Positions 7,192 through 63,754 of a stretch of 64,000 nucleotides of DNA are shown here, piece after piece. The notes below the pieces were generated by a model. The model did no database searches. It saw only the letters and a list, made by a program, of their open reading frames with translations, and was not told where the DNA came from. The translations under genes and the position numbers were made by a program. Each line of letters starts with the position of its first letter. Position 1 is the stretch's first letter. Origin of the DNA: an uncultured bacterium (GTDB taxonomy: Bacteria > Babelota > Babeliae > Babelales > Vermiphilaceae); the NCBI GenBank assembly GCA_963702025.1, contig OY969699.1, positions 128,001-192,000 of the forward strand. The letters are read 5' to 3'.

Positions 7192-7217
7192 GAAGGCACC
7201 AAAATTGGTGCCTTCTT
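7192..7217 (-). terminator. Intrinsic terminator
   Basis: gaaggcacc-aaaatt-ggtgccttc hairpin with A tract on + (U tract on -). Confidence 0.7.
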
Positions 7218-7237
7218 GAATAGTTTTTCTAAATTGA

Positions 7238-8098: not shown

Positions 8099-8231
8099 AT
8101 TTTCTCCCTTAGAATTGGTTAAATGATACTGCAACCACGCCTAAGATTACCCTGAATTGTCAGAAAAAATCAAGCTTTATTTAAATTCTACCACCGTACT
8201 GGATTTTTTTCTGACAATTTCAGTAGAGAAA

Positions 8232-9110
8232 TTAAAATGTATAACGAGCCCCTACCGTGATTGGGAAGCGCAATTCCGTACCGATAGAACCAAATATGAG
8301 ATTATTAATACCAGGAACCACTAACGGTGCTGGATTGCAACCGGCATTCTGACCAAATGCGATAGTATCGCCACTTCTTGGTCCACAATTTGCAACTACT
8401 TCGCCAACGATCATTAGATTCCAACAATTGCACATGCAAACATCTAAGCCAATGCTTAAACCACCGCTTACTTTAGTATTTTTATCAAAAAAAGGTTGAT
8501 CGGTAACAAACGCAACCGCCGCTGCCGGAGGTATAGCGAGAGTAGAGCTGAATTTTATACGTTGATGATGCATTGCACCAACTTTTGCGCCAAGAAACAC
8601 CGAATATCTGTCGCACCAGCGATCAAAGAAATATTGGAATCCAAGGTAGCCATCGTAGAGCTTATACTTGTGCAGATCAAAGACCAATGTTGATGCCGGT
8701 GATTGAAGAGTTTGGAACGATTCATCATGTTTGCCGCTGGCTTGAACATAATTAAATTCAGCATAAATACGAATATTATCAGAAATTGCATAACCAACTT
8801 GACCACCAATGGTCCATGGCACATGGAATAATTTAAAGAAACGAGGTGTTTTTAAAAATTGAACCACCGGATTAGCGCCGGCAACGTTGGTGCATTGAAT
8901 GGCAGAAATGTAACCACGGTGTTCCCACAATATCGGCACCACACCACCATGAACTTGAAGATCGAAAGCGCCACACGCCAACGGAATCTCAGAACAAGTG
9001 TAGCCACAACAAACCGGTTCACATTCCCGGCAATCAGAATCGGCAAGAAGAGGGGCAGCAAAAAAAAGCGCCAGCGCTAAAATACTGCTTTTATACATTG
9101 CAAACTTCAT
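8232..9110 (-). CDS. Cys-rich outer-membrane beta-barrel protein, family A copy 3
   Basis: Signal peptide, Cys cluster, DRWCDR motif, ends ARYTF. Confidence 0.8.
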   Translation of the reverse strand: MKFAMYKSSILALALFFAAPLLADSDCRECEPVCCGYTCSEIPLACGAFDLQVHGGVVPILWEHRGYISAIQCTNVAGANPVVQFLKTPRFFKLFHVPWTIGGQVGYAISDNIRIYAEFNYVQASGKHDESFQTLQSPASTLVFDLHKYKLYDGYLGFQYFFDRWCDRYSVFLGAKVGAMHHQRIKFSSTLAIPPAAAVAFVTDQPFFDKNTKVSGGLSIGLDVCMCNCWNLMIVGEVVANCGPRSGDTIAFGQNAGCNPAPLVVPGINNLIFGSIGTELRFPITVGARYTF

Positions 9111-9213
9111 ACAATCTCCTTAATAAGGTTTTTATCTCTTTTTGAGTAGCATTTTAATACTAGCTTCATTACCAAAAAAAAATCAAGTCTTAAAAAAATT
9201 TGTTCAAAAACAA

Positions 9214-9246
9214 AAAAAAGGCATTGAATTTCTCAATGCCTTTTTA
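9214..9246 (-). terminator. Intrinsic terminator
   Basis: aaaaaaggcattga-attt-ctcaatgccttttt hairpin with A/T tracts on both sides. Confidence 0.7.
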
Positions 9247-9267
9247 GTTTTTGTTGGCAATTAGATT

Positions 9268-10116
9268 TTAGAAGCTATATCTGATTGCCGCAGTTACCGG
9301 AAAGCGAAGCTCGTTGCCAACGCTACCTACAACCAATTGCGTAATGAGAAGTCCAGTTGCCACGGTAGCCACAGGACCAACAGATCTTGGACCACATGAG
9401 CCAACTACTTCACCAGTTACTACAAATGACCAGTTGCCACAGAAGCAAATATCAAAACCAACGTTAGCGCCGCCGCTGATTACCGTATTGCTACGATATA
9501 CATTTTGGTCTGTGAACGGGGTGGTGTTACCGCTAGCAAAATTGAAATCATAGTTCAATCTTTTGTGATGTGTTAAACCAACTTTACCACCAAGGAAGAA
9601 GGAAACACGATCACACCAGCGATCCCAATAGTAACGAGCACCGGCATATGCATCAAATAATTTATATTTTCTTGCATCACCAAAAGTGAATGTTGAGCCA
9701 TCTTCAGCTAAGATTCCGACATTATTTTTGTGATTTGCTTGTGAGTAGTTAAACTCTAAATACACACGAGTGTTGTCTGACATCGCATAACCAACTTGAC
9801 CACCAACGATCCATGGAATTCTGTATAAGTGGCTGAATTTTGGTGTTTCAAAATAGCTAATCAATGGAGTGGATGCTGAGCAATTCAACGCTAACCAATT
9901 GCCTCTATTGCGCCAGAGAATTGGGTTTACGCCACCTTGCACTTGCAAGTCCCATGCGCCGCAATACAACGGATTGCATCCGCATTCGTAGCACGAAGAT
10001 TCACAACATTGTGAATCACGAGATCCCCCATCATCCTGCCATGCATTCGCCTTGCTACCTAGCAAAGACAAAAGCAGAATAAGTGAGAGATGTTTTGCAG
10101 TAAGAAGTTTTTTCAT
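9268..10116 (-). CDS. Cys-rich outer-membrane beta-barrel protein, family A copy 4
   Basis: CCESSCYECGCNPLYCGAWDLQVQGG identical to copy 2; ends IRYSF. Confidence 0.8.
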   Translation of the reverse strand: MKKLLTAKHLSLILLLSLLGSKANAWQDDGGSRDSQCCESSCYECGCNPLYCGAWDLQVQGGVNPILWRNRGNWLALNCSASTPLISYFETPKFSHLYRIPWIVGGQVGYAMSDNTRVYLEFNYSQANHKNNVGILAEDGSTFTFGDARKYKLFDAYAGARYYWDRWCDRVSFFLGGKVGLTHHKRLNYDFNFASGNTTPFTDQNVYRSNTVISGGANVGFDICFCGNWSFVVTGEVVGSCGPRSVGPVATVATGLLITQLVVGSVGNELRFPVTAAIRYSF

Positions 10117-10264
10117 ATTTACCCTTTTTTTTAAAGTGTTAATACTGCAACCGACTATAGATTACTCCGAAGAATAAAAAAAAATCAAGAGTCAAATTAA
10201 AAAAAAGTAACCCAGATGCTGTTCTTGCCAACATCTGGGTTGTAACAAATACTTTATTTACGCA

Positions 10265-11173
10265 TTAAAAGCTGTATTTCAAGCCTGCGGTAATTGGGAA
10301 GAAAACTTCCGTGCCGATCCGGCCGACAACTAAATTGGTCGGTGAGAAATTTGGCAGAATACTCGCACAAGGATTTAAGTTGCCAATATCTGAATTTGAA
10401 CGCGGTCCACACGTAGCAACCGCTTCAGCGGTAAATACAACTGAAAAATTACAGCCCAAGCACCATTCAAATCCGATATTTGCGCCGCCCGCTACTGAAT
10501 TACTTTTATAGAAGAATGGAACACAATTTAATACAAGCGGAGTTTGTATTGTGCATTTCGTGGATGCTATGTTAATACGCGCATTCGTTTCTTTTCTATG
10601 CAAGAATCCGAATTTGCCGCCAAAGAAAAATGCAAAATCATTGCAACCACAATTTATTTCCCAATAATAGCGTGCACCCAAATACACATCATAAACTTTA
10701 TAGCGACTCGGATGTATATTCACCGTTACAACATCATTTGGTGTTGCCGCAACGCCAAGTAAAGTGAAATTACGGCCCGAGGCTTGTCGGTAATTAAATT
10801 CAATATATGTTTCAAAATCATTCGTTATAGCATAACCAATGTGGCCGCCAACGTACCAAGGGGTCTTGAACAACTTTTTAAATCGAGGCATTTTGAATAA
10901 AGGAATAATTGATTGATTAAAATTAGGAATACTCAGTGCGTTACATGAAATCGCTGAAAAAATTCCGCGATCTGTCCATATAGTAGGGGCTACGCCACCC
11001 TGAATCTGAAAATCAATGGCTCCACAGTTTAACGGATTGCCACAGTCATATGCTTGATCACAGCACTGCTCTTCAGGGCAACAATCATCAGAACTTCTAC
11101 CGAAGGTAAAATAGCTACAACTCGCTAAATAACAGAGTAAAAAAAGACTTTTACGACTCAAAACGTTTCTCAT
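10265..11173 (-). CDS. Cys-rich outer-membrane beta-barrel protein, family A copy 5
   Basis: Probable start MRNVLS at 11173; CCPEEQCCDQAYDCG cluster; ends LKYSF. Confidence 0.8.
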   Translation of the reverse strand: MRNVLSRKSLFLLCYLASCSYFTFGRSSDDCCPEEQCCDQAYDCGNPLNCGAIDFQIQGGVAPTIWTDRGIFSAISCNALSIPNFNQSIIPLFKMPRFKKLFKTPWYVGGHIGYAITNDFETYIEFNYRQASGRNFTLLGVAATPNDVVTVNIHPSRYKVYDVYLGARYYWEINCGCNDFAFFFGGKFGFLHRKETNARINIASTKCTIQTPLVLNCVPFFYKSNSVAGGANIGFEWCLGCNFSVVFTAEAVATCGPRSNSDIGNLNPCASILPNFSPTNLVVGRIGTEVFFPITAGLKYSF

Positions 11174-13695: not shown

Positions 13696-15150
13696 ATGAA
13701 TATACAATGTAGGTTTTTAATAAAACCTTTTTCTCTTTCGCTGTTATTGATTGCATCAAGTTATGCCGATGAAATTGATTTACGTGCAGTAGATCAATTT
13801 AGAAAGTGCCAGAAGGATAACTGTTCAAGAGTTGCACTAAGCGCTCAGCTCACGTTTGGTAGTAATTATCCTTCAGCACAAACCTTTCCATCTATTTCAG
13901 CAACCGGAGACCAAGTATATGTGGTATATAATAATAATGGACTTTATACCCCTACATTACTTGCTGCACAACTATTTGATAATGTTAACGGACAATTAGT
14001 TTCTGCGCAAACACTCCTGTGTGACCCAAACTATCCCAATCCATGGATGGGGTTCGCATCAGCAGATTTTAGCCTATTTTCTGTCCTTGATGGTAGTCTC
14101 GGGACAACATCGCTTCCGGCACGAATTCGTATTCTTGATTCAAACTTTAATCAAGTAGGTCAACGGATTTTTTCATCTTATCAAGGCGACTTTTTGGGTG
14201 TGAATCCTGCTGGTGGATTTTTTGCGGGTGGATCATTTTCAGAAGATAACCATTATGTTGTGATATCTACCAGTATTTCTAATACGCCTCCAAACGCACA
14301 AAGTATGTTAGTGGTAATGGATGCTACTAATCCTTCACTTCCCACTGTAGCGCAAACTGTAATCACCGGATTTCCAGTTTTTTTCGGCCCATATCTGTTT
14401 ACTCTGACTGATAACAATGGCAATAAGAATCTGTATATTCAATATACTGTCTCCAATGGGACACCCACGCGAAATTTTATCCTATTCAATTTTTATGAAC
14501 CACCCTTTTATAGCCAAGTGTATCAAGTTAATCTGACTGCGGGCACCATTACTTTAGTTGCTCAACAGCCATTGCCTAAATTTGCTGGACCCGCTGTCCA
14601 AGTACGCGCTGGCGGCAAAGACGCACTCATTTGCCATGGCGGGTACTGCGCCCTAAACCCGAGTGCACCATCTTTTTATGCTAATCCTATTCCTTTTCAA
14701 GAATCAGTTTTACCCGGTGATTACGCCGAATCACGCGTATTTCTCTTTAATGGCACTGCCTTAAACTTAGTGGTTAAGGAAGCGGTAAATTGCTGTAATC
14801 GAACTCTCCCTTATCCCCCAAGCAATGGCTGCTCATATCTGATTGGGCAAAATCAAGATCTTCTAGTAGCGGGTTTCCCAAATGTAACCTCAGATAATCA
14901 GGAATTTTGGTGCTTTGCTGATCTTCGCCAAGGTCCAAATGGGCTTGAGTTCCGAGGAGTTAATTTGCCTAACCAAGATATGATAACCGCCATTTCAGTA
15001 TTCAGCCAAGATGGCAATTGGCTCTTTCGTGCAGGATACTTTGGATATGGCAATCAAAATCCAGAAACACCATTTGATGATATATATGGCCTTAACAATC
15101 TCTTGCTCTTTAAAGTATACTCAGCACCATACACCCCAATTTGTAACTAA
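13696..15150 (+). CDS. Exported beta-rich (possibly beta-propeller) Cys-containing protein, allele 1
   Basis: ATG at 13696 after AAGGA; signal peptide ending SSYA; repeated xFSxDxxxxxV-type blade-like segments. Confidence 0.7.
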   Translation: MNIQCRFLIKPFSLSLLLIASSYADEIDLRAVDQFRKCQKDNCSRVALSAQLTFGSNYPSAQTFPSISATGDQVYVVYNNNGLYTPTLLAAQLFDNVNGQLVSAQTLLCDPNYPNPWMGFASADFSLFSVLDGSLGTTSLPARIRILDSNFNQVGQRIFSSYQGDFLGVNPAGGFFAGGSFSEDNHYVVISTSISNTPPNAQSMLVVMDATNPSLPTVAQTVITGFPVFFGPYLFTLTDNNGNKNLYIQYTVSNGTPTRNFILFNFYEPPFYSQVYQVNLTAGTITLVAQQPLPKFAGPAVQVRAGGKDALICHGGYCALNPSAPSFYANPIPFQESVLPGDYAESRVFLFNGTALNLVVKEAVNCCNRTLPYPPSNGCSYLIGQNQDLLVAGFPNVTSDNQEFWCFADLRQGPNGLEFRGVNLPNQDMITAISVFSQDGNWLFRAGYFGYGNQNPETPFDDIYGLNNLLLFKVYSAPYTPICN

Positions 15151-15207
15151 TAAAAAATAATTGATACCTGGCGCCTGAAAAAGGCGCCAATTTAATCAGG
15201 AGATTAT

Positions 15208-16056
15208 ATGAAATCGTTAAATCTACGTTATCTATTTTTGACACTTGCTCTTGCTTCATTCGGCTCAGCACAGGCAGATTATGATGATGGTCGCAATGCA
15301 GATTGTTGCAAAATAGATAATTGCTATGAATGTGGATGCAATCCACTCTATAGTTGCGCGTGGGATATTGCAGTGCAAGCGGGCGTTTGCCCAATCAGAT
15401 GGACAGGTCGCGGCCACTGGAGTGTGCTTGAAAATGGTGCCGATGTTAATCTTTTCAGAACACCAAATTTTAGCCACTTGTATCGCCTTCCTTGGATAGT
15501 TGGCGGCCAAGTTGGCTACGCTTGGAGCGATAACGTTCGTCTTTATTTAGAATTTGATTATTTGCAAGCAAGCCGTAAAAACCGTAACAACGCTTTTAAT
15601 GAATCTGCTTCATCAACAGTGCTTGATATTTGCGTTGGAAAATATAAAGCATTTGAATTTTATGTTGGTGGTCGATATTACTTTGATCGTTGGTGCGATC
15701 GTTATTCGTTCTTCTTAGGCGGTAAAATTGGGTTAATTAGTCATCGTAAAGTTCATTTTACGGGCACAATAACTTACAACTCATATATTTTGGCACCGTC
15801 ATTAGTAGATACTGAAACACCCCTCTTTAGAAGCAAAACGCAGGTGAGCGGCGGCGTTAATGGTGGCATTGATATCTGCTTTGGTGGTAATTGGTCCTTT
15901 GTGATTACTGGTGAAGTAGTGGCCAATAGAGGGCCTCGTGGTCACTCAATTCCGTTAACGGGAAATCCTTTAGTTACTGCAACGAGCCTTTCAATCGGCA
16001 AAGCAGGCACGGAATTGCTTTTTCCAGTTACCGCCGGCATCAGATATAGCTTTTAA
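15208..16056 (+). CDS. Cys-rich outer-membrane beta-barrel protein, family A copy 6
   Basis: CCKIDNCYECGCNPLYSC, WIVGGQVGYA, DRWCDR, ends IRYSF. Confidence 0.8.
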   Translation: MKSLNLRYLFLTLALASFGSAQADYDDGRNADCCKIDNCYECGCNPLYSCAWDIAVQAGVCPIRWTGRGHWSVLENGADVNLFRTPNFSHLYRLPWIVGGQVGYAWSDNVRLYLEFDYLQASRKNRNNAFNESASSTVLDICVGKYKAFEFYVGGRYYFDRWCDRYSFFLGGKIGLISHRKVHFTGTITYNSYILAPSLVDTETPLFRSKTQVSGGVNGGIDICFGGNWSFVITGEVVANRGPRGHSIPLTGNPLVTATSLSIGKAGTELLFPVTAGIRYSF

Positions 16057-16078
16057 AAATATGCTGGTTTAAAGGTAA

Positions 16079-16129
16079 ATTAATCCGTTGATTGATACTC
16101 TTGTAGCATCTTACGGCAACCGCAATTGA
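16079..16129 (+). pseudogene. 3'-terminal remnant of a GMC oxidoreductase gene (duplicate at 19857-19907)
   Basis: Reads INPLIDTLVASYGNRN-stop versus INPLVDALVASYGSGS-stop of the GMC at 29612-31921, followed by the same 3' UTR and terminator. Confidence 0.8.
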
Positions 16130-16155
16130 ACGTAATTTCATTTTTATTATCCCAA

Positions 16156-16184
16156 AAAAGGCCTTGTTAACAACAAGGCCTTTT
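16156..16184 (+). terminator. Intrinsic terminator of the GMC-gene type (also ~19934-19962, ~29500-29537, ~31947-31977, ~35998-36023)
   Basis: aaggccttg...caaggcctttt hairpin plus T tract. Confidence 0.8.
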
Positions 16185-16272
16185 GATTTATAAAAGTGCA
16201 GAACTTTTCTTTACTTTTTTTCCAAATAATCCTAGTATCCCTTCATTCAGGAGTAAAGAAAAAGGGTGTGAT

Positions 16273-16923
16273 ATGGATCATGCATATTACATGAAAAAAG
16301 TTTTTGAGCTTGCCAAACAAGGAATCGGGTTAGTGAGCCCTAATCCACTTGTTGGTTCGCTGATCGTTAAAGATAGCCAAATAATTGGTGCAGGATTTCA
16401 TGAGCGATATGGTCAATTTCATGCAGAGTTGAATGCAATTGTATCTGCAAAGCAACCACTAAAAGGTGCAACCCTTTATTGCAATCTTGAGCCCTGTTGC
16501 CATACTAATAAGCAAACGCCACCGTGCGCGCAACGTATAATTAAAGAAGGCATTTCACGAGTGGTGATTGCCAATAGAGATCCCAATCCAGAAGTAAATG
16601 GCGGAGGCATCGCCCTGCTCAAACAAATGGGCATAGAAGTGATCGAGAATATTTGCCAGGAGGAAGGGGAATTGCTCAATGAAGTTTTTTTTACTTTTCA
16701 CCGCAAAAAAAGACCATTTATTCATCTTAAATATGCACAGACTCTAGATGGTAATATTGCCTGCTCAAGTGGTGATTCAAAGTGGATCACTCATGAAAAT
16801 GCGCGCAAAAAAGCACATGAGATGCGATTAAAATATGATGCAATTTTGATCGGTGCGGGAACTTTAGTTGCCGATAATCCTGCGCTTACTATCCGCTTTA
16901 TTGAATCAGAAAAAAAATGCCCG
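16273..16923 (+). pseudogene. ribD: Truncated ribD copy (deaminase domain plus start of reductase domain) cut by the duplication junction; reads through into REP sequence to 17019
   Basis: Matches 20051-20701 up to EKKCP, then diverges into the REP cluster. Confidence 0.9.
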
Positions 16924-17480
16924 AAAAAAGCTTCATTCCTTATCGCCGTTCGTTTCCCAGCCTTCGCTAATTCCGTTCGTGCTGACCTCTCGACTACGCT
17001 CAAGACTAAAGGCCCTTAGCTTCCTGTGCCCGGCGTCCTTCGACAAGCTCAGGATGAGCGGAAGGATGCGTTTACTCCCGAGTGAAAGTCGAGGGACTTG
17101 GCGAAGACGGGTCGAAGGATCGAAACGAGCAATAATAATTTTCGGATAAGTTTTTCCTGCCAGAACGTGCATAAATACACGAAAAAACTCATTTTTTTGT
17201 TTTTTTTGTTGCATCCATTATCCAAAATCTTGTATATACATAGTATCTGAAATTTTGTATATACATTTTATATGATTAATTTTTAAAAAAAGAATGGTAA
17301 TGGATCAACAAAATGAATAAAAACATAAACGATAGGAGCCACACACACACACACAAAGGCTTTTTCAATGTCCCATAATCTCTATAAACACTATAATACC
17401 ACTTGTTTTGATATTATCTGCGACCAACAACTACTACTACTCATTAATTATTTTTCTAACCTCATAAAAAAGGATTGTAT

Positions 17481-18932
17481 ATGAATATACAATGTAGGTT
17501 TTTAATAAAACCTTTTTCTCTTTCGCTGTTATTGATTGCATCAAGTTATGCCGATGAAATTGATCCAGTCGCGTTAAACCAATTTAGAAAATGCCAGACG
17601 AATAACTGTTCAAGAGTTGCACTAGACAGTGAACTCACATTTAGTCTTTCTCGACCTTCTTTCATATCCTATCCGTCTATTTCAGCAAATGGGGACCAAG
17701 TATTCATACAATATGCTAATAATGCTTTTTATACCCCTACATTACTACTTGCAGAATTATTTGATAATGTTGACGGACAATTAGTTTCCGCTCAAACACT
17801 CAACATCGACCCAAATTATCCCAATCCATGGATTGGGTATGCATCGCCAGATTTTACACGTTTCTCCGTCATTGATGGTAGTATCGGTACTGGATTGCTT
17901 CCGGCACGTATTCGTATTTTTGATTCAAACTTTAATCAAGTGGGCGAACGAATCTTCTCGGCTCTTCAATCATATCTTAGTGGCGTTACTTCCGGTGGAC
18001 TTGTTTGGGGTGGGGAATTTTCAGAAGATAATCATTATGTTGTAGTAACTTATAGTGTTGCCGTTTCCGGTCCAACAGTAACAAGTATGATAGTGGTGCT
18101 GGATGCTACTGATCCTTCACTTCCTATTGTAGCGCAAACCCAAATTACCGGATTTCAAAATGTTTATTCTCCGTTTCTGTTTACTCTGACTGATAACAAT
18201 GGCAACCAGAATCTATACATTCAATTTTGTCTCTGCAATGGAGTGCCTCAGCGAATTGAATATTTCTTCGATACCGCATATATACCGCCATTTGCTAGCC
18301 AAGTTTATCAAGTTAATCTGAATGCTGGCACAATTACTTTAGTTGCCCAACAGCCATTACCTAAATTTGCCGAAGCAGATATCCTCGTACGTCCTGGCGG
18401 CAAAGATGTGATCATTGCCCATGGTGGATGGTGCTGCTTATTCCCGAATCAAATAAGTATTTATGATACTATTCCCCCTCTCACCTCATTTTTACCTAAT
18501 GATAACAGCGAAGCACGCGTATTTCTGTTTGATGGAAGTAACTTAAACTTAGTGGTTAAGGAATCAGTAAATTGTTGTAATTGCACTTGCATTTATCCGC
18601 CAGGCAATGGCTGCTCATATTGTTTTGCACAAAATACAGTATTTGAACTAAATGGTAACCCAGCGGAGCGCTACACTCAGCCGGAATTTTGGCTCTTTGC
18701 AGATCTTCGTCAAGGTCCAAATGGCCTTGAGTTCCGAGGAATGAATTTGCCTAAGTCGGATATGTATACCGCCGTTCGGAGATTCAGCCAGGATGGCAAT
18801 TGGTTTCTTCGCGCGGGAGCACATGGATACATCAATCAGGACCCAACAATGCCATATGTTGATGCCAATGGTATTCGCAATATCTTGCTCTACCAAGTAT
18901 CCTCAGCAGCGTATACCCCAATTTGTAATTAG
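17481..18932 (+). CDS. Exported beta-rich Cys-containing protein, allele 2
   Basis: Identical signal peptide to 13696 gene, divergent mature part. Confidence 0.7.
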   Translation: MNIQCRFLIKPFSLSLLLIASSYADEIDPVALNQFRKCQTNNCSRVALDSELTFSLSRPSFISYPSISANGDQVFIQYANNAFYTPTLLLAELFDNVDGQLVSAQTLNIDPNYPNPWIGYASPDFTRFSVIDGSIGTGLLPARIRIFDSNFNQVGERIFSALQSYLSGVTSGGLVWGGEFSEDNHYVVVTYSVAVSGPTVTSMIVVLDATDPSLPIVAQTQITGFQNVYSPFLFTLTDNNGNQNLYIQFCLCNGVPQRIEYFFDTAYIPPFASQVYQVNLNAGTITLVAQQPLPKFAEADILVRPGGKDVIIAHGGWCCLFPNQISIYDTIPPLTSFLPNDNSEARVFLFDGSNLNLVVKESVNCCNCTCIYPPGNGCSYCFAQNTVFELNGNPAERYTQPEFWLFADLRQGPNGLEFRGMNLPKSDMYTAVRRFSQDGNWFLRAGAHGYINQDPTMPYVDANGIRNILLYQVSSAAYTPICN

Positions 18933-18985
18933 TAATAATTGATACCTGGCGCCTGAAAAAGGCGCCAACCTAATCAGGAGATCAT

Positions 18986-19834
18986 ATGAAATCGTTAAAT
19001 CTACGTTATCTATTTTTGACACTTGCTCTTGCTTCATTCGGGTCAGCACAGGCAAATTATGATGATGATCGCAGTGCCGATTGTTGCAAAATGGATAATT
19101 GCTATGAATGTGGATGCAATCCACTCTATAGTTGCGCGTGGGATATTGCAGTGCAAGCGGGCGTTTGCCCAATCAGATGGACAGGTCGCGGCCACTGGAG
19201 TGTGCTTGAAAATGGTGCCGATGTTAATCTTTTCAGAACACCAAATTTTAGCCACTTGTATCGCCTTCCTTGGATAGTTGGCGGCCAAGTTGGCTACGCT
19301 TGGAGCGATAACGTTCGTCTTTATTTAGAATTTGATTATTTGCAAGCAAGCCGTAAAAACCGTAACAACGCTTTTAATGAATCTGCTTCATCAACAGTGC
19401 TTGATATTTGCGTTGGAAAATATAAAGCATTTGAATTTTATGTTGGTGGTCGATATTACTTTGATCGTTGGTGCGATCGTTATTCGTTCTTCTTAGGCGG
19501 TAAAATTGGGTTAATTAGTCATCGTAAAGTTCATTTTACGGGCACAATAACTTACAACTCATATATTTTGGCACCGTCATTAGTAGATACTGAAACACCC
19601 CTCTTTAGAAGCAAAACGCAGGTGAGCGGCGGCGTTAATGGTGGCATTGATATCTGCTTTGGTGGTAATTGGTCCTTTGTGATTACTGGTGAAGTAGTGG
19701 CCAATAGAGGGCCTCGTGGTCACTCAATTCCGTTAACGGGAAATCCTTTAGTTACTGCAACGAGCCTTTCAATCGGCAAAGCAGGCACGGAATTGCTTTT
19801 TCCAGTTACCGCCGGCATCAGATATAGCTTTTAA
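18986..19834 (+). CDS. Cys-rich outer-membrane beta-barrel protein, family A copy 7
   Basis: Differs from copy 6 at only 4 residues near the N-terminus. Confidence 0.8.
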   Translation: MKSLNLRYLFLTLALASFGSAQANYDDDRSADCCKMDNCYECGCNPLYSCAWDIAVQAGVCPIRWTGRGHWSVLENGADVNLFRTPNFSHLYRLPWIVGGQVGYAWSDNVRLYLEFDYLQASRKNRNNAFNESASSTVLDICVGKYKAFEFYVGGRYYFDRWCDRYSFFLGGKIGLISHRKVHFTGTITYNSYILAPSLVDTETPLFRSKTQVSGGVNGGIDICFGGNWSFVITGEVVANRGPRGHSIPLTGNPLVTATSLSIGKAGTELLFPVTAGIRYSF

Positions 19835-20050
19835 AAATATGCTGGTTTAAAGGTAAATTAATCCGTTGATTGATACTCTTGTAGCATCTTACGGCAACCG
19901 CAATTGAACGTAATTTCATTTTTATTATCCCAAAAAAGGCCTTGTTAACAACAAGGCCTTTTGATTTATAAAAGTGCAGAACTTTTCTTTACTTTTTTTC
20001 CAAATAATCCTAGTATCCCTTCATTCAGGAGTAAAGAAAAAGGGTGTGAT

Positions 20051-21193
20051 ATGGATCATGCATATTACATGAAAAAAGTTTTTGAGCTTGCCAAACAAGG
20101 AATCGGGTTAGTGAGCCCTAATCCACTTGTTGGTTCGCTGATCGTTAAAGATAGCCAAATAATTGGTGCAGGATTTCATGAGCGATATGGTCAATTTCAT
20201 GCAGAGTTGAATGCAATTGTATCTGCAAAGCAACCACTAAAAGGTGCAACCCTTTATTGCAATCTTGAGCCCTGTTGCCATACTAATAAGCAAACGCCAC
20301 CGTGCGCGCAACGTATAATTAAAGAAGGCATTTCACGAGTGGTGATTGCCAATAGAGATCCCAATCCAGAAGTAAATGGCGGAGGCATCGCCCTGCTCAA
20401 ACAAATGGGCATAGAAGTGATCGAGAATATTTGCCAGGAGGAAGGGGAATTGCTCAATGAAGTTTTTTTTACTTTTCACCGCAAAAAAAGACCATTTATT
20501 CATCTTAAATATGCACAGACTCTAGATGGTAATATTGCCTGCTCAAGTGGTGATTCAAAGTGGATCACTCATGAAAATGCGCGCAAAAAAGCACATGAGA
20601 TGCGATTAAAATATGATGCAATTTTGATCGGTGCGGGAACTTTAGTTGCCGATAATCCTGCGCTTACTATCCGCTTTATTGAATCAGAAAAAAAATGCCC
20701 GCGGCGCATAGTGCTGGGATCACTGGGATTTATTGAACCACATAATCTCGCAGTCACTGATGAATATCGGCACAAAACAATTTTAGTGACCAGTGACTCT
20801 GATTATTGGTATCATGAAAAAAAAGCTGAAAAATTCCAAAAAGATGGCATTACCATTGTGCGCGTTGATGTTGATAATGGACTTCTTAATTTGTCTCAAG
20901 TTTGCCAAAAAATGGCAGAATTAAAAATCACATCAATACTGGTTGAAGGCGGCAGCAAGATTCTTACCTCTTTTATACTAGAAAAATTATTTGATCGTAT
21001 TTCCATTTTTATTGCGCCCAAAATAATTGGCTCGGGTATAAATGCCATTGATGAGCTTGGCATTCAAAAAATGGCTGATGCATTTACTTTTGAGAAAACA
21101 AGTTTTGAAATTATTGATGATGTAATTCATTTTTCAGGAAAGCCTGCTTACGACCGGCTCGGGATGAGAAACAATGTTCACCGGATTAATTAG
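20051..21193 (+). CDS. ribD: Riboflavin biosynthesis deaminase/reductase RibD
   Basis: SPNPLVG, HAE, LEPCCH...PPC, SKWIT, ILVEGG motifs; start MDHAYYM at 20051. Confidence 0.96.
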   Translation: MDHAYYMKKVFELAKQGIGLVSPNPLVGSLIVKDSQIIGAGFHERYGQFHAELNAIVSAKQPLKGATLYCNLEPCCHTNKQTPPCAQRIIKEGISRVVIANRDPNPEVNGGGIALLKQMGIEVIENICQEEGELLNEVFFTFHRKKRPFIHLKYAQTLDGNIACSSGDSKWITHENARKKAHEMRLKYDAILIGAGTLVADNPALTIRFIESEKKCPRRIVLGSLGFIEPHNLAVTDEYRHKTILVTSDSDYWYHEKKAEKFQKDGITIVRVDVDNGLLNLSQVCQKMAELKITSILVEGGSKILTSFILEKLFDRISIFIAPKIIGSGINAIDELGIQKMADAFTFEKTSFEIIDDVIHFSGKPAYDRLGMRNNVHRIN

Positions 21194-43360: not shown

Positions 43361-43440
43361 CCATTTTTAACCTTGACATTGCTCCATTTTATTGTATATT
43401 AGAAAATAATAGATAAAAATAGATCAAAATGGAGTTAATT

Positions 43441-44121
43441 ATGTCACTTTTTAACAAGATCCTTATTGCTAGCTTTGCAGTACTTTGTGCCGTTGGTTCT
43501 CAATCAATTTCTGCCATGGAAACTGATAAAAATGCTCTTGCATTTTCGCATTTAAAACCTTTTTACCAAGAATTAGACAGTTTTAGGAAAGATGAAACAA
43601 AAGTAACATTTTCTATTCATACAATTAATGAAACAATTAATCAAACCGAAATCCTCTATGGTGCCTATCTGCACGATGCACACAATACTAAACTTGGATC
43701 ATGCAAAATAAAATATAACCCCCAAACCCGCGTAGCATTTTGCTATAGTTTATGGGTACATCAAAACGATCGGCAACAAGGGATCGGAACATATCTGGCT
43801 GCGATGGTTGCAAAATTCTTAGCATCATATGATTGCCGGGGCATAGCATGGCATGTTGAGCCACATGATTTGAGAGATGGGGAACAAAAAGATCAGATGA
43901 TGTCTAAATTAATCAAATTCTATGAAGCACTCGGCGCAACATATTACAAAGATTTAAATTGTATGTTTTTTGATATACAACAACAAACAGATATAAAAGC
44001 GCTCATTCGAGCAGTGACCCTTGCAAATCACGTTGCGCAATCCGATCAACCGGATACCGTTATGCCGGAAAAAGCATACGGCAGAATTAATATAGTGTTA
44101 AATCACTTACAAAATAGATAA
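43441..44121 (+). CDS. Secreted GNAT-like acetyltransferase with two C-terminal PTS2-like motifs
   Basis: Signal peptide ending ISA-ME; LWVHQNDRQQGIGTYL (acetyl-CoA motif A), LIKFYEALGA (motif B); RAVTLANHV and RINIVLNHL. Confidence 0.75.
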   Translation: MSLFNKILIASFAVLCAVGSQSISAMETDKNALAFSHLKPFYQELDSFRKDETKVTFSIHTINETINQTEILYGAYLHDAHNTKLGSCKIKYNPQTRVAFCYSLWVHQNDRQQGIGTYLAAMVAKFLASYDCRGIAWHVEPHDLRDGEQKDQMMSKLIKFYEALGATYYKDLNCMFFDIQQQTDIKALIRAVTLANHVAQSDQPDTVMPEKAYGRINIVLNHLQNR

Positions 44122-44139: not shown

Positions 44140-44789
44140 ATGAAATTAAGAATGATAATTGTAACGCTAACTCTCATTGTCACACAATCCATTTTTGGCA
44201 TGGCGCAGCACCAAGCGCTTAATCGCGCACGCCAGATTGTTGGCCATCTGCAGCAACCAAGGCAGCCAAGTGCACCAGGATATCAGCCACATGAAAAGCT
44301 CATGTTGCCCATGGCATGTGCCGGTAGTATAGAAGGTTGTGTGGAGGGTTGGATACATGAAAAAGTTATCTCCGATAAAAAAACACAACAGCCAATTGCC
44401 TGTATTCACCTTTTTGTTGAAGATGATAATTCATCATCTACCAAATTTACCGCTTCACTTTCAATGCCAACTCAGCATAACATTGGGTCAGCAATGGTTA
44501 CTTATCATAAAAAAAATAACACTTTAGAGCTGGAACTTTTAACGGTAAATACTGATTTTCGTGGCAAAGGTTATGGTAGCATGCTCCTTGCCTCTGTTAA
44601 AAATCTTGCTCGCCATCTTGGCTGTAAAGAAATCACCGGCACCGCAGCTCCGTATGCACTTAAAGAAGGTGAAACAAAAAGCAAAATCTTCCAAAATTGA
44701 TCAAATTATACCGTTCATTCGGCGCCAAACTAGATGGCAAAGCTACTGCGATCGAAGCGCCGATGAAGATCAGTCTGCAAAAGAAATGA
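44140..44789 (+). pseudogene. Secreted GNAT-like acetyltransferase with N-terminal PTS2-like motif, interrupted by a 1-nt frameshift near 44680
   Basis: LTVNTDFRGKGYGSML motif A; motif B (LPKLIKLYRSFGAKL...) continues in another frame to TGA 44787-89, aligning with MSKLIKFYEALGA of the neighbour; could also be a sequencing error. Confidence 0.7.
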
Positions 44790-57502: not shown

Positions 57503-60500
57503 ATGAAATTTTCTATAAAAATCACCGTTTTCTTGTGCCTTATAGGTTTACAGGCATACGCAAGCGAAAAGCAAAGCAGTATTGCTCTGACCAGAGCACA
57601 GCAATTAATGGGTCACATAGCCCCCTCTGTTGATATTCCGGGAAACCTAAATTCTACTGCGCACCAGAGAATTGACGGGATTTTGGGCCATATTGCGCCT
57701 GAATTGCAAGAATATCCTTTTGACGTTGAATTAAATCAATGTGCCGGCATATCCCAAGATGCGATAGATATTTTTCAAAAAAGGCTCATTGAAAAAAAAG
57801 AAATAAAACTTCCTTTAAATACGATTATTGAATGGAACTTATCAGGAAATCACCAGTTTTTTATAGATTCGCTCAACGGTAAAAGTTCTGAAATCAACCC
57901 AACCCGCACCGCAATGGCTAAAAAATGGGTTCGCAATGCCTCTACTCGTATATTTAATGATCTCAACCGATCCTTCTTGGAGATTGTGGTTAATGCTTTT
58001 GACGCAATGTTACCCGAAGATCAATCGGTGGGCAAATTCGGCATGGGATTTTTCTCATTATTAAGCTTCTTGGATCTCATTGAAACGGATGGCGCAATTA
58101 TAGCCATAGATACCACTGCTTTGGATAAAAATGGAAAACCCTTCACCTTCACGATGCACATTGAAAAAAATACCGCTCAAGATATTTATGTAACTTTCAA
58201 ATTACAAGAAACACCGAACACACAAACAGGCTCTAAAATTGCTATTTTACCTAAAAATACAGCAAAATCCTTTTCCCCCGGAACGATAGAAAATATATAT
58301 CGCTACTTACATTTTTTACAGTTTTATGAAAATGGAACAATTAATCTGACCATTGAAAGAAATGGAACATTACAAAACGAAAAGTTATGCGCAGGAACCA
58401 ACACTACTGCTATTGCTCAAGTTGCACTAAGTTCACAAGAACTATCAGCCACCGATAAAGGAAGTGGTATCACCGTTCCTGTTGCCTTAACAAAACTGCT
58501 TGTTCCCAGCTCATCATCAAAAGGAAATATTAAGATAAAATCTTTAGAAGATGCAAAGAAAGAGGCACTCAATAACATCTCAAAGCCACAGCTGGTAAAC
58601 TTTAAAGGGAAAACGAAAGAAAATCTCAACTACTCACACTTCTTAATTAAAATTAATGGTGTTGTGGTAATTGCCATTCCTAATAAGCAAAAAGAAATAG
58701 AAAATCAGATTGTTGATTCAACCGGGCACATAAAAGATCTATTAATTTCCATGCCGCAAATTACGCAGTTAACCTTGGCACGTAATGAAATTTATATAAA
58801 CCCTGATGGCAAGAGCTTTGAAGAAACGTATTTAAAAAAGGTGATAGAAAACGCCATTAATACTATTTTATTAATTAATGATAGCACCGATCAAAAAACA
58901 TTGGTTGAAAATCAACTTCTCATCTCTGCATTATATAATGCCTTTGATTATTGGGAAAAACAGACGGCGGCCGAACACGTTAATGGGCTCTTTACCAGTT
59001 ATATAAAAGAAGTTCTTGCAAAATTATTAGAAAGCAAAAAAAATATTTTTCCGGTGCACCCGTTATTCTATTCGATGACAAAATCAATTTGTGATACGTT
59101 TTTAGGAACTACCAATCAACAGTGTACTTTGTTACCAATAGATGCCTCTATTGTTTCTTATAGTTATTCAAAATTAGAAAACTTTTTGAAAGCACAATTT
59201 TTAACCAAAGCATCAAAAATAGAAAATCCGACACATAAAAGTTTATTCTTAAAAGGTATTAATCAAGAGTTAATCGCGGGTAAAATTATCTTATTTGTAC
59301 CCGAAGATGTATTAAAAAATAAAACGGGAAAACCAACTATAACTGATGCCGGTTTACGCCAAACGTTATTTATACCAATTTCATTTTTACAACAAAGTAC
59401 AAACGAAGATGCTTTAACTAATAAAATTATTAACTATTTCACTCAAACAATCCTCAGTTCTTATAACAAGAATCCCGAAAATTCACATCAAAAAGTCTTT
59501 TTAATTAATAAAGATAAAGCGGGTGATTTTTACTGTAGCAGGCTCTATGATTTACCGAATGATAAAATTACCTTTTTAACTCAAAATCAATCCCAGCTCG
59601 CTGATGAATTTTTAAACACACATAAAGAACTAATAAAGAATTTGCAATTACCCGACGAAAATAGAAACTCTATACTCAGGTTTATTGAATGTTATGGCAA
59701 AGATTGTAAAGAAGCATTTCATCGGCATTCAGAGGATAATGAGAAGTTTGAATATAATATTGATATTTTTCATCCAGCCATAGCTACCGTTGACCATCTT
59801 GTTGTACAATTTAGGAAATTTTTTACCGCATTTAAAAATATACACAATGGACAAAGAGACGCACTATTAGAAGGCCCGTTTCGAGATGATGAATTTCCTC
59901 ATGTATTTTGTAAGATCTTAGAAAACACCATTTTTTTTGATGAAGCAACGAATACATTTCACAAGTTTGATAATGCAAAAGCAAAAAGACTATTTATTAA
60001 CGAATTCAGAACAAACCAAGCTTTCAAAGAACTAGCTCAGCTCAATGCTCCTGAATATTTTTCCAGAAGATTTGAGGCAGAGGCTAAACCTTTGTTATTG
60101 AAACTGATAAAAGACAATAATTTATTAGGTGAAAAAATTAATTCGTTGAATCTGGTGAATTTTATATTTTATAAGCTGCTTCAGAATAGTGAATTAAGGA
60201 CTCGTGACTATATACTTGAATATAATCATAATATCGAAATATTCCCTAAATTAGATAAAAACCTGATTGCTTTAGAAAATCTATTTCTATCATTAGTATC
60301 AAGAAAAAATTATGAAAACTTTTATTGGCGTAATTATGTAGAACCGATTTTATCTAAAAATATTAGCGTGCAATCGAAGGGGTTAAATAAAGAACTGGTG
60401 CGCAAAGCGATTACAGAAAAATTAGAAGAAATTCCGGTCAGTCTCGAATATCAAAATACATTAACAGCGAGTATCGAGAATTTAAATATTCCTTCCACGT

Positions 60501-63500
60501 TAGTAGACTCATTGGTTGCGTATCTTAATATAAGAGATGAATCAAAATTGACCGAAAGTAATAAAAAATCTTACTTCGAATTCAGAAATTCGATGCTTGG
60601 GATGTATAAGCATTATTTTAAAATTAATGATAATGATATTGCCTATAATTATGGCTATGGCGATCGCGTTAAAGCCATTCATCCGACTAATGATGTCACC
60701 GGTAATGAATTAATAACATTGCTGCAAAAAATTGATCCTAACCCGACTTTATACAATAAGCTTTTAGAATTCCAGATTACTGATTTCATTTTCCAAACTA
60801 ATAGCATGGTAAAATCCCAGGATCTCTTAAATAAAAAATTTTACGTGCCATCGCTGTTCGCAAATACTCCTGTCTCAATACTTGCTTATCTTTTAAAAAG
60901 CGGTGTGCATGAAAATATCATAAAAATTATTCTTCAAGATTCACGCAATAGCGCTGAGTTAATGTACATTTCATATTTAATAGCTTTATTGCATTCTAAT
61001 CCTACTATTAAACTGTTGTTACGGAATGAAAATAAAGAAATAGAAAACAATTTAAAAGTTATTATTAAAACATTGATCCAAGAAAAAGTTGATCAGGATA
61101 GAATTATCAAAATTTATAATGAAAATAGATCAAAAAATTCAATAAAAGAACGACTAGAATCTTTCTCTACTGAACCTATCGCTAAAAACATTCAAAGCTA
61201 TTTAGCCGATTTAGCACAAAATTCAGTCAACTTTGCGCGCAAACAATCGTTTGTCGCATCTAAATTAAAATTACCAGATACAAAAAAATTCACTCTCAAA
61301 CAATTGATTAATGCCCACTGCACCGGCACCGGACTGAGTGCATTGTTACCCATTAATGATCCAAACATTAAAAGAACGCCAGCGCAATTAAACAGCATTA
61401 TTGAACATATAAACAAACAAGAGAATGAATTAGAATTTGGCAAAATCGAACAATCGGTTGAAGCAGGGAGTGAAAAGAGCCCGGTATGCGGCACTATAAC
61501 TGAATGTTTACAAAATTCGATTGACTCGGTAAAACAGTTTATTACATCAATGCAACAGAATAAAACTGAAATAAGAGAATCTTTAAAAGCACGATATAGC
61601 ACCACTTCTAAGGTGCTCGACGCAGTATCTTCAATAGAATTTTCTTTAGCAACGATACCTTCCAAAATCGATAATAATAACCATCTCTCTTTAACAATAA
61701 GGGACCATATCGGTTTTGCAACCTTAAAATCGTTAATTACCGATTTTCTCTTGCCGGATTACAGCAACAAAAGACCTGATTTAGGAAACGTTGGCGATAT
61801 GGGCAATGGTTCATTTAAAATGTATCAACAGGCAGAATTTGTTTCGATTATTACCCGGCCCGTTGAGGACCCAACAAAAGTGTATATGTTAACCATTGTT
61901 CCTTTAAGAAATAAATTAACCAATCGCGTTGAGGATTTATCAATTACTCTCCGTGATATTACCGCTCAAGTTCCTAAAACTCTTTTTGGCACAACGATCC
62001 GCATAGTGTTCTTACCTGAACCAAGTAATAGAAATGATATTAATTTATTGTATGTTAAAGATTTCTTAACCAATACCGTTGGCGCCACCGATATCACATT
62101 GCCCCATGGGAAAAAAATAACTATTTATCTGAAGAATGGAAAAGAAGCAATCTTATTAAATAAACCCACAAAAACTGTTTTCCAAACAGTGTACCCGGAA
62201 ACCGGCAAAGTTAAATTTAAAGTAAATCAGCGCGAGAGTGATTACTTGCAAAGCTTTATAACTACCGGAGGCGTTCCCTTTAGAACCTTGCCTTCTTTAT
62301 GTAAACAGATGAATTTATTGCCAACTAATTTTATTACCGATTTTAGTTTCGGCTACCTTGTGGATTTGGATATAAACAGCTATGAACCGGTTCAAAGTAG
62401 AACATTGCTACAAATGAACAAAGAAAATCATATCCAATTAAAACAGGCGCTCCTTGATGCCTATTTTATCATTGGCTTGCACAAAGGCATCAATAATTCA
62501 AATTATTTTGACAAAGTATTTACCCATTTTGGCAGTTCGTGCCATTCATTAGAACAAGTTAGCTTAAGCTCTCAACTCAATGAGACATGCAATGAGATGA
62601 TAAACAACTTTTTAAATTCCAACTCAGTTACCACGATGGAACCGGAACTCTTCTTTACCTATTACAAACCTTCATGGGCGGACAAGAGTTTTTATCACCA
62701 TATCAAAGAGGTGTATGATACGATTCTGGACAGCGTGAATGCGCAGATAAAAGAAAATAAGAGGCTTATTGAAGAGTGGCACACCAAAAATAAAAATGAC
62801 CTCACCACCATCGCTACCAGCGAAGATAAAGCATTGGCAGAACAATTAAAGGAAAAATTAGCAAATGAGTTTAAGCCATTGAGAGAAAAATGTGCCCACG
62901 CAATTGAGACTATTTTTAACAATTGGAAATTCCAATTTAAAACATCAAAAAATGAAACTGCAAATCTTTTTGAAACAAACGTTGTAATACCATGGGTGTT
63001 TAAAAAGGCTGAGGGAATTAGTACCGGCTTTAAAAATGCACTAATGGAAATACCGACAATAAACAAAGATGGGGGAAAAAATAAATCTTCTTCTGCTGAA
63101 TCCATATATTCTCATAATTTAAACATAGTCTCGTTATTTAACGACTTAATGAAGCATAGTCTTTTGAGTTATTGTAATTTATTTTTAAACAAAATAGGCG
63201 TAACAGATATACAAAACAAACTAAGTAATGCCTCTTTTTATTACAATCCCTACCAATTAACAAGTGGATTTTACGTCCCAAAAACTAAAGAATTAAAAAT
63301 CAATTTAGCATTTGTCTCAGTCGCAGATTATTTTGAGATGTTGATTAGAATATTAGAAAACGATGCTACCGGGATCAGGTTAAATAAAACCTATAATGAG
63401 TTATTTGCAAATAATGCCGGCAATGAGGCAACGTTGACCCATGAGCTTGAGCATGCACGGCGCGAGGATAGCCACAATGGCCCCCACGGCCCTGGATTGG

Positions 63501-63754
63501 ATGCTGAGGGAAATATGTCTAATTTTAGACAATGCGCTAATAGTTTTAGTAGAAAAGCCCAAGAGGCCGGGTTACTGCAAGACTGGATAGCGGATATTCG
63601 GAATTTCTACAATAGTAAAGTTGATGCCCGTAACCGCGATTCTGAAAAGGAAAGTATGAAAAAATACGCTTTAAGCAACGTGAGAAGAGTTGAAGCTGAA
63701 AATAAAATATCTCTCATGCAAGAATTGGGATATTTATTCGGGGCTAAGTTGTAA
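57503..63754 (+). CDS. Giant secreted protein with two GHKL (HSP90/sacsin-like) ATPase modules and a C-terminal HEXXH motif; PTS2-like motifs at N-terminus and PTS1 AKL at C-terminus
   Basis: Signal peptide ending AYA; EIVVNAFDA..GKFGMGFFS; ECLQNSIDS..IRDHIGF..GDMGNGSF; LTHELEH; ends FGAKL; probable start MKFSIK at 57503. Confidence 0.8.
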   Translation: MKFSIKITVFLCLIGLQAYASEKQSSIALTRAQQLMGHIAPSVDIPGNLNSTAHQRIDGILGHIAPELQEYPFDVELNQCAGISQDAIDIFQKRLIEKKEIKLPLNTIIEWNLSGNHQFFIDSLNGKSSEINPTRTAMAKKWVRNASTRIFNDLNRSFLEIVVNAFDAMLPEDQSVGKFGMGFFSLLSFLDLIETDGAIIAIDTTALDKNGKPFTFTMHIEKNTAQDIYVTFKLQETPNTQTGSKIAILPKNTAKSFSPGTIENIYRYLHFLQFYENGTINLTIERNGTLQNEKLCAGTNTTAIAQVALSSQELSATDKGSGITVPVALTKLLVPSSSSKGNIKIKSLEDAKKEALNNISKPQLVNFKGKTKENLNYSHFLIKINGVVVIAIPNKQKEIENQIVDSTGHIKDLLISMPQITQLTLARNEIYINPDGKSFEETYLKKVIENAINTILLINDSTDQKTLVENQLLISALYNAFDYWEKQTAAEHVNGLFTSYIKEVLAKLLESKKNIFPVHPLFYSMTKSICDTFLGTTNQQCTLLPIDASIVSYSYSKLENFLKAQFLTKASKIENPTHKSLFLKGINQELIAGKIILFVPEDVLKNKTGKPTITDAGLRQTLFIPISFLQQSTNEDALTNKIINYFTQTILSSYNKNPENSHQKVFLINKDKAGDFYCSRLYDLPNDKITFLTQNQSQLADEFLNTHKELIKNLQLPDENRNSILRFIECYGKDCKEAFHRHSEDNEKFEYNIDIFHPAIATVDHLVVQFRKFFTAFKNIHNGQRDALLEGPFRDDEFPHVFCKILENTIFFDEATNTFHKFDNAKAKRLFINEFRTNQAFKELAQLNAPEYFSRRFEAEAKPLLLKLIKDNNLLGEKINSLNLVNFIFYKLLQNSELRTRDYILEYNHNIEIFPKLDKNLIALENLFLSLVSRKNYENFYWRNYVEPILSKNISVQSKGLNKELVRKAITEKLEEIPVSLEYQNTLTASIENLNIPSTLVDSLVAYLNIRDESKLTESNKKSYFEFRNSMLGMYKHYFKINDNDIAYNYGYGDRVKAIHPTNDVTGNELITLLQKIDPNPTLYNKLLEFQITDFIFQTNSMVKSQDLLNKKFYVPSLFANTPVSILAYLLKSGVHENIIKIILQDSRNSAELMYISYLIALLHSNPTIKLLLRNENKEIENNLKVIIKTLIQEKVDQDRIIKIYNENRSKNSIKERLESFSTEPIAKNIQSYLADLAQNSVNFARKQSFVASKLKLPDTKKFTLKQLINAHCTGTGLSALLPINDPNIKRTPAQLNSIIEHINKQENELEFGKIEQSVEAGSEKSPVCGTITECLQNSIDSVKQFITSMQQNKTEIRESLKARYSTTSKVLDAVSSIEFSLATIPSKIDNNNHLSLTIRDHIGFATLKSLITDFLLPDYSNKRPDLGNVGDMGNGSFKMYQQAEFVSIITRPVEDPTKVYMLTIVPLRNKLTNRVEDLSITLRDITAQVPKTLFGTTIRIVFLPEPSNRNDINLLYVKDFLTNTVGATDITLPHGKKITIYLKNGKEAILLNKPTKTVFQTVYPETGKVKFKVNQRESDYLQSFITTGGVPFRTLPSLCKQMNLLPTNFITDFSFGYLVDLDINSYEPVQSRTLLQMNKENHIQLKQALLDAYFIIGLHKGINNSNYFDKVFTHFGSSCHSLEQVSLSSQLNETCNEMINNFLNSNSVTTMEPELFFTYYKPSWADKSFYHHIKEVYDTILDSVNAQIKENKRLIEEWHTKNKNDLTTIATSEDKALAEQLKEKLANEFKPLREKCAHAIETIFNNWKFQFKTSKNETANLFETNVVIPWVFKKAEGISTGFKNALMEIPTINKDGGKNKSSSAESIYSHNLNIVSLFNDLMKHSLLSYCNLFLNKIGVTDIQNKLSNASFYYNPYQLTSGFYVPKTKELKINLAFVSVADYFEMLIRILENDATGIRLNKTYNELFANNAGNEATLTHELEHARREDSHNGPHGPGLDAEGNMSNFRQCANSFSRKAQEAGLLQDWIADIRNFYNSKVDARNRDSEKESMKKYALSNVRRVEAENKISLMQELGYLFGAKL

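Follow-up and report, generated by a model that had tools for sequence, protein, structure and literature searches.

Candidate peroxisomal targeting signals on a giant GHKL/HExxH protein and other secreted proteins of Babelota

Why a secreted bacterial protein should carry sequences resembling peroxisomal targeting signals of both type 1 and type 2 (PTS1 and PTS2) is the question raised by one open reading frame (ORF; 57503..63754, + strand) in a stretch of 64,000 nucleotides (positions 128,001 to 192,000 of contig OY969699.1, assembly GCA_963702025.1; hereafter the window) from an uncultured member of the Vermiphilaceae (Babelota), a bacterium that is probably an intracellular parasite of protists. 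The ORF encodes 2083 amino acids from the ATG at 57503, or 2087 from the first ATG at 57491; residue numbers refer to the longer form, P0001, and the public cluster representative is the 2083-residue form. It begins with a Sec-type signal peptide (MKFSIKITVFLCLIGLQAYA; 57503..57562, +), recognized from the sequence and a hydrophobicity script, for which cleavage after A-Y-A is inferred. The ORF, two PTS2-like nonapeptides, two sets of GHKL motifs, a HELEH motif and a terminal A-K-L were all found as an earlier note on this DNA had described them. The feature is real and has probably been selected, and the sequence comparisons set out below make it fairly likely that, in some Babelota (TM6)-like parasites, a part of the secretome is destined, via PEX5 and PEX7, for the peroxisomes of the host.

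Targeting signals on the protein and its orthologs

The consensus sequences given for the two signals are [SAC][KRH][LM] for PTS1 and, in its strict form, [RK][LVIQ]x5[HQ][LAF] for PTS2 (PMC9244630). The final codons of the gene, GCT AAG TTG TAA (63743..63754, +), encode A-K-L and a stop, closing a short tail that extends past the LG[FY] end common to many relatives, and agree with the PTS1 consensus, as the earlier note had recognized. Its description of tandem PTS2-like repeats stands in a qualified form. Neither RAQQLMGHI (57593..57619, +), within RAQQLMGHIAP (57593-57625), nor RIDGILGHI (57668..57694, +), within RIDGILGHIAP (57668-57700), fits the strict PTS2 consensus, because both end in I and the first has A at position 2, but both represent documented variant types, RAx5HI being listed as PTS2 for Arabidopsis ACX3/ACX6 and RIx5HI for a long-chain acyl-CoA synthetase (PMC9328179, PMC3355810). 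The second copy, which has counterparts in the orthologs P0004 and P0007, also fits the glycosomal pattern [RK][LVI]x5[HQ][ILAF] (PMC9512073). Both have the hydrophobic position 5 described as required in PTS2 (PMC4585086), and they would lie at mature positions 11 and 36 if cleavage occurs after AYA.

Taken alone, AKL is weak evidence, because about one to two such ends are expected among the ~715 secreted proteins of the genome. Conservation in orthologs and a genome-wide excess of signals (see below), however, are not chance-level. Ends of the AKL or SKL type occur in four of the five members of a clade with support 1.0 (P0001, P0003, P0004 and P0007; not P0008). P0003 and P0004 (63-64% identity) retain AKL with three different preceding residues (LFG, VSK and LPS across the trio; ends SKAKL and PSAKL), and P0007 (38% identity) ends FISKL on a longer tail, so that the signal stands behind varying flanks (FG-AKL, SK-AKL, PS-AKL, FI-SKL). 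The N-terminal motif is maintained in parallel: P0007 has RLNKILGHV after its signal peptide, P0004 has two copies, RATRIIDQI (an H-to-Q change that PTS2 allows) and RIQNILGHI, and P0003, whose start is uncertain, has only HARVIANHI. Random ends and lost repeats, the outcome against which the earlier note had measured itself, are thus not what these orthologs show. The C-terminal tail is an addition, because in many other signal-peptide members of the family the sequence finishes at an LG[FL] motif or shortly beyond it.

Outside this clade, PTS1 ends are absent from all 104 full-length members (4 of 109 in total), and a further 47 ORFs of the family, taken from metagenome and genome loci, include none. 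Addressing to peroxisomes does not characterize the family as a whole, and its members of giant-virus type do not even carry a signal peptide; the peroxisomal address proposed earlier is supported in part, for the four signal-bearing members of the clade, and P0008 has neither signal.

Signals across the secretomes of four genomes

Signal peptides were identified by eye and with the hydrophobicity script, genes were also called by simple scripts, and expected PTS1 counts were derived from internal tripeptides. In the source genome (G000) the script assigned a signal-peptide-like start to 714 of 1452 proteins; a signal peptide is reported for 44% of Chromulinavorax proteins (PMC6561590). G000 and a second genome, G013 (995 of about 1100 kb read), were not chosen on the motif, 413 kb of the about 1.5 Mb of G019 were chosen around hits of a second protein family, and three of about 50 contigs of G011 were chosen by the PTS2 pattern. 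With the 2083-residue protein removed, seven of the 714 signal-peptide proteins of G000 end in [SA][KR]L versus 0.98 expected (p 7e-5). In G013, PTS1 ends are found on 10 of 391 signal-peptide proteins (0.5 expected) and on none of 486 others, and PTS2 motifs on 11 of the 391 (1.0 expected). Nine of 122 secreted proteins in G019 end in SKL, most of them with a PTS2 too.

When the four genomes are pooled, [SA][KR]L ends occur in 35 of 1249 signal-peptide proteins against 1.7 expected, and in 2 of 1457 other proteins against 2.2 expected; those on secreted proteins are spread over 19 of 772 families. Most tails belong to the strongest class of import signal (SKL 21, SRL 7, AKL 5), and AKL or ARL together are found seven times versus 0.9 expected. 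Control endings in the same pool are not enriched (TxL/V/I, 5 versus 15; S[^KR][LVI], 14 versus 14.7; S[KR][VI], 1 versus 0.9; three scrambles, 0-2 versus 1.8-2.4). Directly after the signal peptide, the pattern R-h-x-x-h-x-x-[HQ]-h is present in 34 proteins: of 49 matches to the N-terminal nonapeptide, 34 have H or Q at position 8, together with a hydrophobic position 5, versus 39 of 427 elsewhere. Thirteen proteins carry both signals (odds ratio 32), representing 2 of the 772 families (p 0.023), and 21 secreted proteins carry PTS2 only. These 21 would need PEX7 and point to a host that possesses it, and the earlier suggestion that dual signals cover hosts lacking PEX7 is not supported; dual signals are also described within a single host, on LACS7 (PMC3355810). 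On these patterns it is likely that the signals have been selected for recognition by PEX5 and PEX7.

The signals recur on unrelated secreted proteins, which include ankyrin proteins, GNATs, an EEP-domain protein, a hydrolase and members of unknown families. Within the window, a secreted GNAT (44140..44700, +) has RARQIVGHL directly after its signal peptide and is the second PTS2-type cargo, and the secreted GNAT directly upstream (43429..44121, +) has a PTS2-like RINIVLNHL at an unusual place, three residues before its C-terminus. In a 15-kb island of G011 (C40:450-13049; L232), nine of ten secreted genes have PTS1 and/or PTS2 and the tenth ends SML; ankyrin, EEP-domain and unknown-family genes there lie beside a transposase-like gene, and one copy is split into two ORFs. 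A VVISPEV stretch is common to ankyrin proteins that have PTS2 in G013 and end in SKL in G011. Six ankyrin-like secreted proteins with starts of the form RLQRIMGH[LI] stand in tandem in G013 (C1:195907-202792), and the gene after them has RMDRIMSHF and ends SSL. In the source genome, a secreted protein of 559 residues (C1:1054466-1056145) ends QLRAKL and has motifs that recall, by eye, glycoside hydrolase family 1.

The second family (L232:1606-2721 and relatives) comprises secreted proteins of ~370 residues without a Pfam or NCBIfam match that occur, often in tandem, in 89 of 261 genomes of the phylum; it is expanded with dual signals in G019 and G011 and was not found in G000. Among 30 loci read, signals lie mainly in G011, G013, G019, G232 and G233, with helices lacking the R in some others and isolated PTS1-type ends in G235 and G050. 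Phylum-wide DNA patterns were noisy. The PTS2 pattern gave 11 hits versus 1 for the control in G013, and at 52 loci of 10 further genomes the motif followed a signal peptide in G011 only; hits of the RIIPVQGHL type were set aside as housekeeping background. An excess of KSKL-stop in G015 proved to be one identical 15-mer in nine places, two of them at contig ends, and is probably a repeated mobile element; of the KSKL-stop hits in G059 and G047, all 15 that were checked fall outside genes, and these three genomes were rejected as candidates.

A protein family with two GHKL modules and a zincin-like domain

In both modules of the giant protein, N-box, G1, lid and G2 motifs are present, including the catalytic Glu and the Mg-binding Asn, and are 99-100% conserved in 79 aligned members, a value to be read with the fact that N-box and G2, and not G1 and lid, served as anchors for selecting members. 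Module 2 (61478..62405, +; ECLQNSIDS at 61502, GDMGNGSF at 61793-61816) has the GHKL order N-G1-lid-G2, as in 80 of 109 members, and runs from E1338/N1342/D1345 through D1405xxG, the lid P1422-K1427 and GDMGNG at 1435 to GT at 1500. Module 1 (57938..58790, +; EIVVNAFDA at 57980, GKFGMGFFS at 58031) does not, G1 and lid following G2 in 89 of 109 members: the N-box E164/N168/D171 is followed after 17 residues by the G2 box (181), then by GS (247), and, ~140 residues beyond the G2 box, by the G1 motif DxGxG (322) and the lid PxSxSK (339-344). Weak Hsp90/Grp94 matches to module 1 map in the swapped order too, and module 2 gives HATPase_c_3 and sacsin-domain matches in relatives, below cut-off. Conserved candidate arginine fingers follow the modules (R431 after module 1, R1637 in PVQSR after module 2) and resemble the arginine that Hsp90 and Tiamat are described as having in the transducer. 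The modules are separated by a poorly conserved linker of ~760 residues (59168..61450, +), presumably helical and without a significant Pfam match.

The C-terminal zincin-like domain (63260..63540, +) combines a GxY...IN strand, HELEH (63440-63454) and a third His, H1999 (63485-63487), in the spacing HExxH-x10-H. HExxH and a further His are present in 98 of 109 members and the third His in 95% of the 79, as expected of the ligands of a zincin. The domain gave no Pfam match even at E 10; leads in the ESM Atlas are M85/M26 peptidases (scores 0.90-0.91, from 114-119 shared features only). SprT/Wss1-like zincins presumably offer a further likeness, with HExxH, a beta-hairpin motif ahead of it and a third His close by. 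Bergerat folds with ATPase activity are predicted for the GHKL modules, and a zincin fold with proteolytic activity for the C-terminal domain; whether the whole protein is an ATP-coupled protease is, on its motifs, an evenly balanced proposition.

The protein was found in 7 of the 261 phylum genomes but in none of seven of the source's own genus, and the 1.6-Mb source genome contains no paralog. The first GHKL region, used as query in a full HMMER scan, returned 217 representatives, of which 150 were listed; a metagenome scan with the single protein as query found nothing, and one with an alignment as query found 76 loci. A tree built from three alignment blocks of 79 of the 109 full-length members (the 30 lacking one or more of the regular-expression anchors were left out) resolves three groups: members without a signal peptide, including giant-virus-type proteins; members with Ser/Thr/Pro-rich starts, which we take to resemble chlamydial type III substrates; and members with a signal peptide, in whose clade a TM6 record (L083) also encodes a member, which, like the large share of signal-peptide proteins, agrees with Babelota (TM6/Dependentiae) as the probable source. 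The giant-virus-type proteins, which have no signal peptide, sit on viral contigs, one of them a giant-virus metagenome-assembled genome (GVMAG), and their occurrence there fits action inside the eukaryotic cell. On three such contigs (L039, L041, L042) the family gene lies beside genes that by eye resemble those for ERV1 thiol oxidase, D5 primase-helicase, capping enzyme and RNA polymerase. Three members (P0024, P0020, P0143) have a YopJ-type acetyltransferase or ankyrin repeats as fusion partner, which are typical of host-directed proteins. The sequences probably define an unannotated sacsin/Hsp90-like ATPase-zinc-protease family common to giant viruses and intracellular (chlamydia-like) bacteria.

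The sacsin/Tiamat/NO VEIN clade is described as comprising long GHL proteins with a transducer arginine, a helical core and a Wss1-like metalloprotease fold, sacsin itself having repeated ATPase modules (bioRxiv 10.64898/2026.09.30.754977). The sacsin ATP-binding domain is also the best NCBIfam model for the present family, which differs in having two modules, the first permuted, and an intact HExxH, absent from Tiamat as described in that source. Membership of sacsin was rejected, since model NF047352 scored 13.4-36.6 bits in six of six members (P0001, 13.4) against a cut-off of 50, no J or HEPN match was found, and there are two modules where sacsin has three. The same applies to Tiamat and Tiamat-like proteins: neither P0001 nor 27 relatives gave a DUF3684 or PD-(D/E)xK nuclease match in Pfam, and the PADLOC TmtA model gave none for P0001 and E 0.033 over 29 residues in one of 10. 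The nearest ESM Atlas clusters are phage HATPase_c_3 and 'RIIA' proteins (0.95-0.96, a feature similarity and not an alignment), and phage T4 rIIA-like GHKL proteins are likewise described as parasite-encoded with variable C-terminal parts (PMC7824862); these clusters measure 570-920 residues, compared with 2083 and two modules here.

In the window, the gene is flanked by a small antitoxin-like helix-turn-helix pair and intergenic repeats and is otherwise solitary. Two other regions (6326-11173 and 13696-21193) contain paralogous secreted proteins arranged as an array, Cys-rich at the start and aromatic at the end (YSF/YVF/YTF), as well as a three-gene block, including a riboflavin-pathway-like gene, duplicated in tandem.

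Proposed import route, alternatives and meaning

It is proposed that the proteins are exported by Sec and would then cross the outer membrane through a type II-like system or in vesicles, the latter described as an export route (PMC6561590); two secretins and PulE/PilB-type ATPases are encoded in five of five genomes tested, and pilin-type N-termini in G000. Removal of the signal peptide would expose two PTS2 helices near the new N-terminus, with PTS1 at the other end, and in the host cytosol PEX7 and PEX5 would bind the folded ~230-kDa protein for transfer to a peroxisome or glycosome, peroxisomes being described as importing folded oligomers (PMC4585086). The two signals would most likely provide redundant, high-avidity import of a large cargo. 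A glycosome-bearing host was considered, but a kinetoplastid hexokinase PTS2 ending in HI found no confirmation in the literature searched. ATP is present in the peroxisome matrix, where the two GHKL-transducer modules of a single chain may close on ATP in the manner of a sacsin/Hsp90-type machine, take hold of a client, either a protein or a complex, and hand it over to be cut at the C-terminal zinc site. Delivery into the matrix appears somewhat more probable than not, and for the scheme in full the case is finely poised: several Babelota genera may share a peroxisome- or glycosome-directed secretome, in which PTS1 and PTS2 are interchangeable labels on dozens of unrelated Sec-exported proteins imported into the matrix via PEX5 and PEX7, the organelle would be the site of work (lipid supply, peroxide control or ATP), and the giant ATPase-protease would have been re-addressed there to remodel or cut matrix complexes.

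A number of observations weigh against peroxisomal addressing. The sister ortholog P0008 lacks both signals although its genome, G019, tags a paralog family heavily, and P0001 itself gave nothing above cut-off against Pfam, NCBIfam, PADLOC or PDB sequences. The contrast between secreted and non-secreted proteins in G000 is not significant (7 of 714 versus 2 of 738; Fisher p 0.10), and several PTS1-type tails of that genome resemble coiled-coil ends. The two non-secreted [SA][KR]L proteins are paralogs ending RARL with damaged 5' ends (C1:1456031-1458407) that flank a secreted GNAT-like gene with RINAITNHL. Seventeen PTS1 hits and 21 of 34 PTS2 hits fall within one chained cluster, and the pooled numbers are inflated by this paralogy and by the choice of regions in G011 and G019; the two unbiased genomes, G000 and G013, and the family-level count are independent of both. 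No PTS1 excess was seen in samples of G208 (0 of 136), G233 (0 of 158; two PTS2-like), G171 (0 of 32) or the same-genus G006 (0 of 32, with little power), nor at family-f12 loci (0 of 23), and the absence from samples of four other genomes indicates that the trait is patchy. Silent PTS1 are reported to arise by chance in prokaryotes (PMC545800). Relatives without the R keep similar helices (LVGHIQVLQEL in G006), so the PTS2 appearance could sit on a helix with another role.

Among the alternatives, it is possible but unlikely that the motifs bind PEX5 and PEX7 on proteins that never work in the matrix and act instead as receptor decoys or at the peroxisome surface, blocking host import or tethering peroxisomes to the bacterium. 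A PEX5-bound effector need not enter the matrix, as Salmonella SseI binds PEX5 through its GKM end and is described as staying on the membrane (PMC11811301), a further point against matrix delivery; Legionella recruits peroxisomes with MavP (PMC12042894), and ankyrin scaffolds or a 230-kDa cargo could stall import. SseI::SKL, however, entered the matrix (PMC11811301), and strong tails of this kind prevail in the present set, whose cargoes are diverse enzymes where one protein would suffice as a decoy.

We consider it improbable that the motifs serve the bacterium itself, as signals for export, folding or stability, and only resemble peroxisomal ones, such as an amphipathic helix for a type II system or chaperone and a PDZ- or protease-related C-terminal tag. 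The motifs do occur only on signal-peptide proteins, other Babelota have the R-less helices, and S-x-L fits the class I PDZ motif. Against this, only 57 of 1249 secreted proteins carry PTS1 and/or PTS2, secretins are also encoded by G233, whose sample has no PTS1, and two unrelated motifs each match one peroxisomal signal, co-occur and substitute for each other in homologs. The PDZ-motif reading was rejected on the spectrum of endings, TxL, SxV/I and S[^KR]L not being enriched and AKL/ARL being so. Least probable is that the signals on the 2083-residue protein are inherited relics or chance and that, whatever the targeting of other proteins, its place of action is the host cytosol, as for relatives without PTS: 105 of 109 members are without PTS1, P0008 is without both signals in a genome that uses them, and three of the four carriers are 63-65% identical, but AKL persists behind three residues that have all changed, P0007 combines a PTS2 with SKL on a tail of another length, and the PTS2 pair survives an H/Q exchange.

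Engagement of host peroxisomes by secreted proteins has parallels in other intracellular bacteria, namely SseI with its PTS1-like GKM and MavP, which binds PMP70 (PMC11811301, PMC12042894). These are single type III or type IV effectors with one non-canonical PTS1 or none, whereas here canonical SKL, SRL and AKL occur on 19 families, together with PTS2, dual signals and Sec signal peptides. Arabidopsis LACS7 (RLx5HI/SKL) and ACX3 (RAx5HI) are described with the same nonapeptide types, and the former with the same PTS2-PTS1 pairing (PMC3355810, PMC9328179); the present motifs are bacterial, lie behind a cleavable signal peptide and stand in tandem. A literature search covering few subscription papers found no report of peroxisomal targeting by Babelota, Dependentiae or TM6, or of a comparable PTS1/PTS2 secretome. 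The system is a new and much larger form of a known trick, the mimicry of host targeting signals, carried by an unannotated ATPase-protease family.

The peroxisome-linked bacterial effectors met with in this literature search are isolated examples whose targeting signals are weak or missing. If the reading is true, the peroxisome matrix would be a main target of intracellular bacteria, with a parasite using both import routes for many unrelated proteins; a studied Babelota isolate is reported to encode no lipid synthesis (PMC6561590). The signals would then offer a sequence-readable clue to the lifestyle and the host type, PEX7-bearing, of uncultured Babelota. The giant cargo also defines a probable, unannotated ATPase-protease family with a permuted GHKL module in giant viruses and intracellular bacteria.

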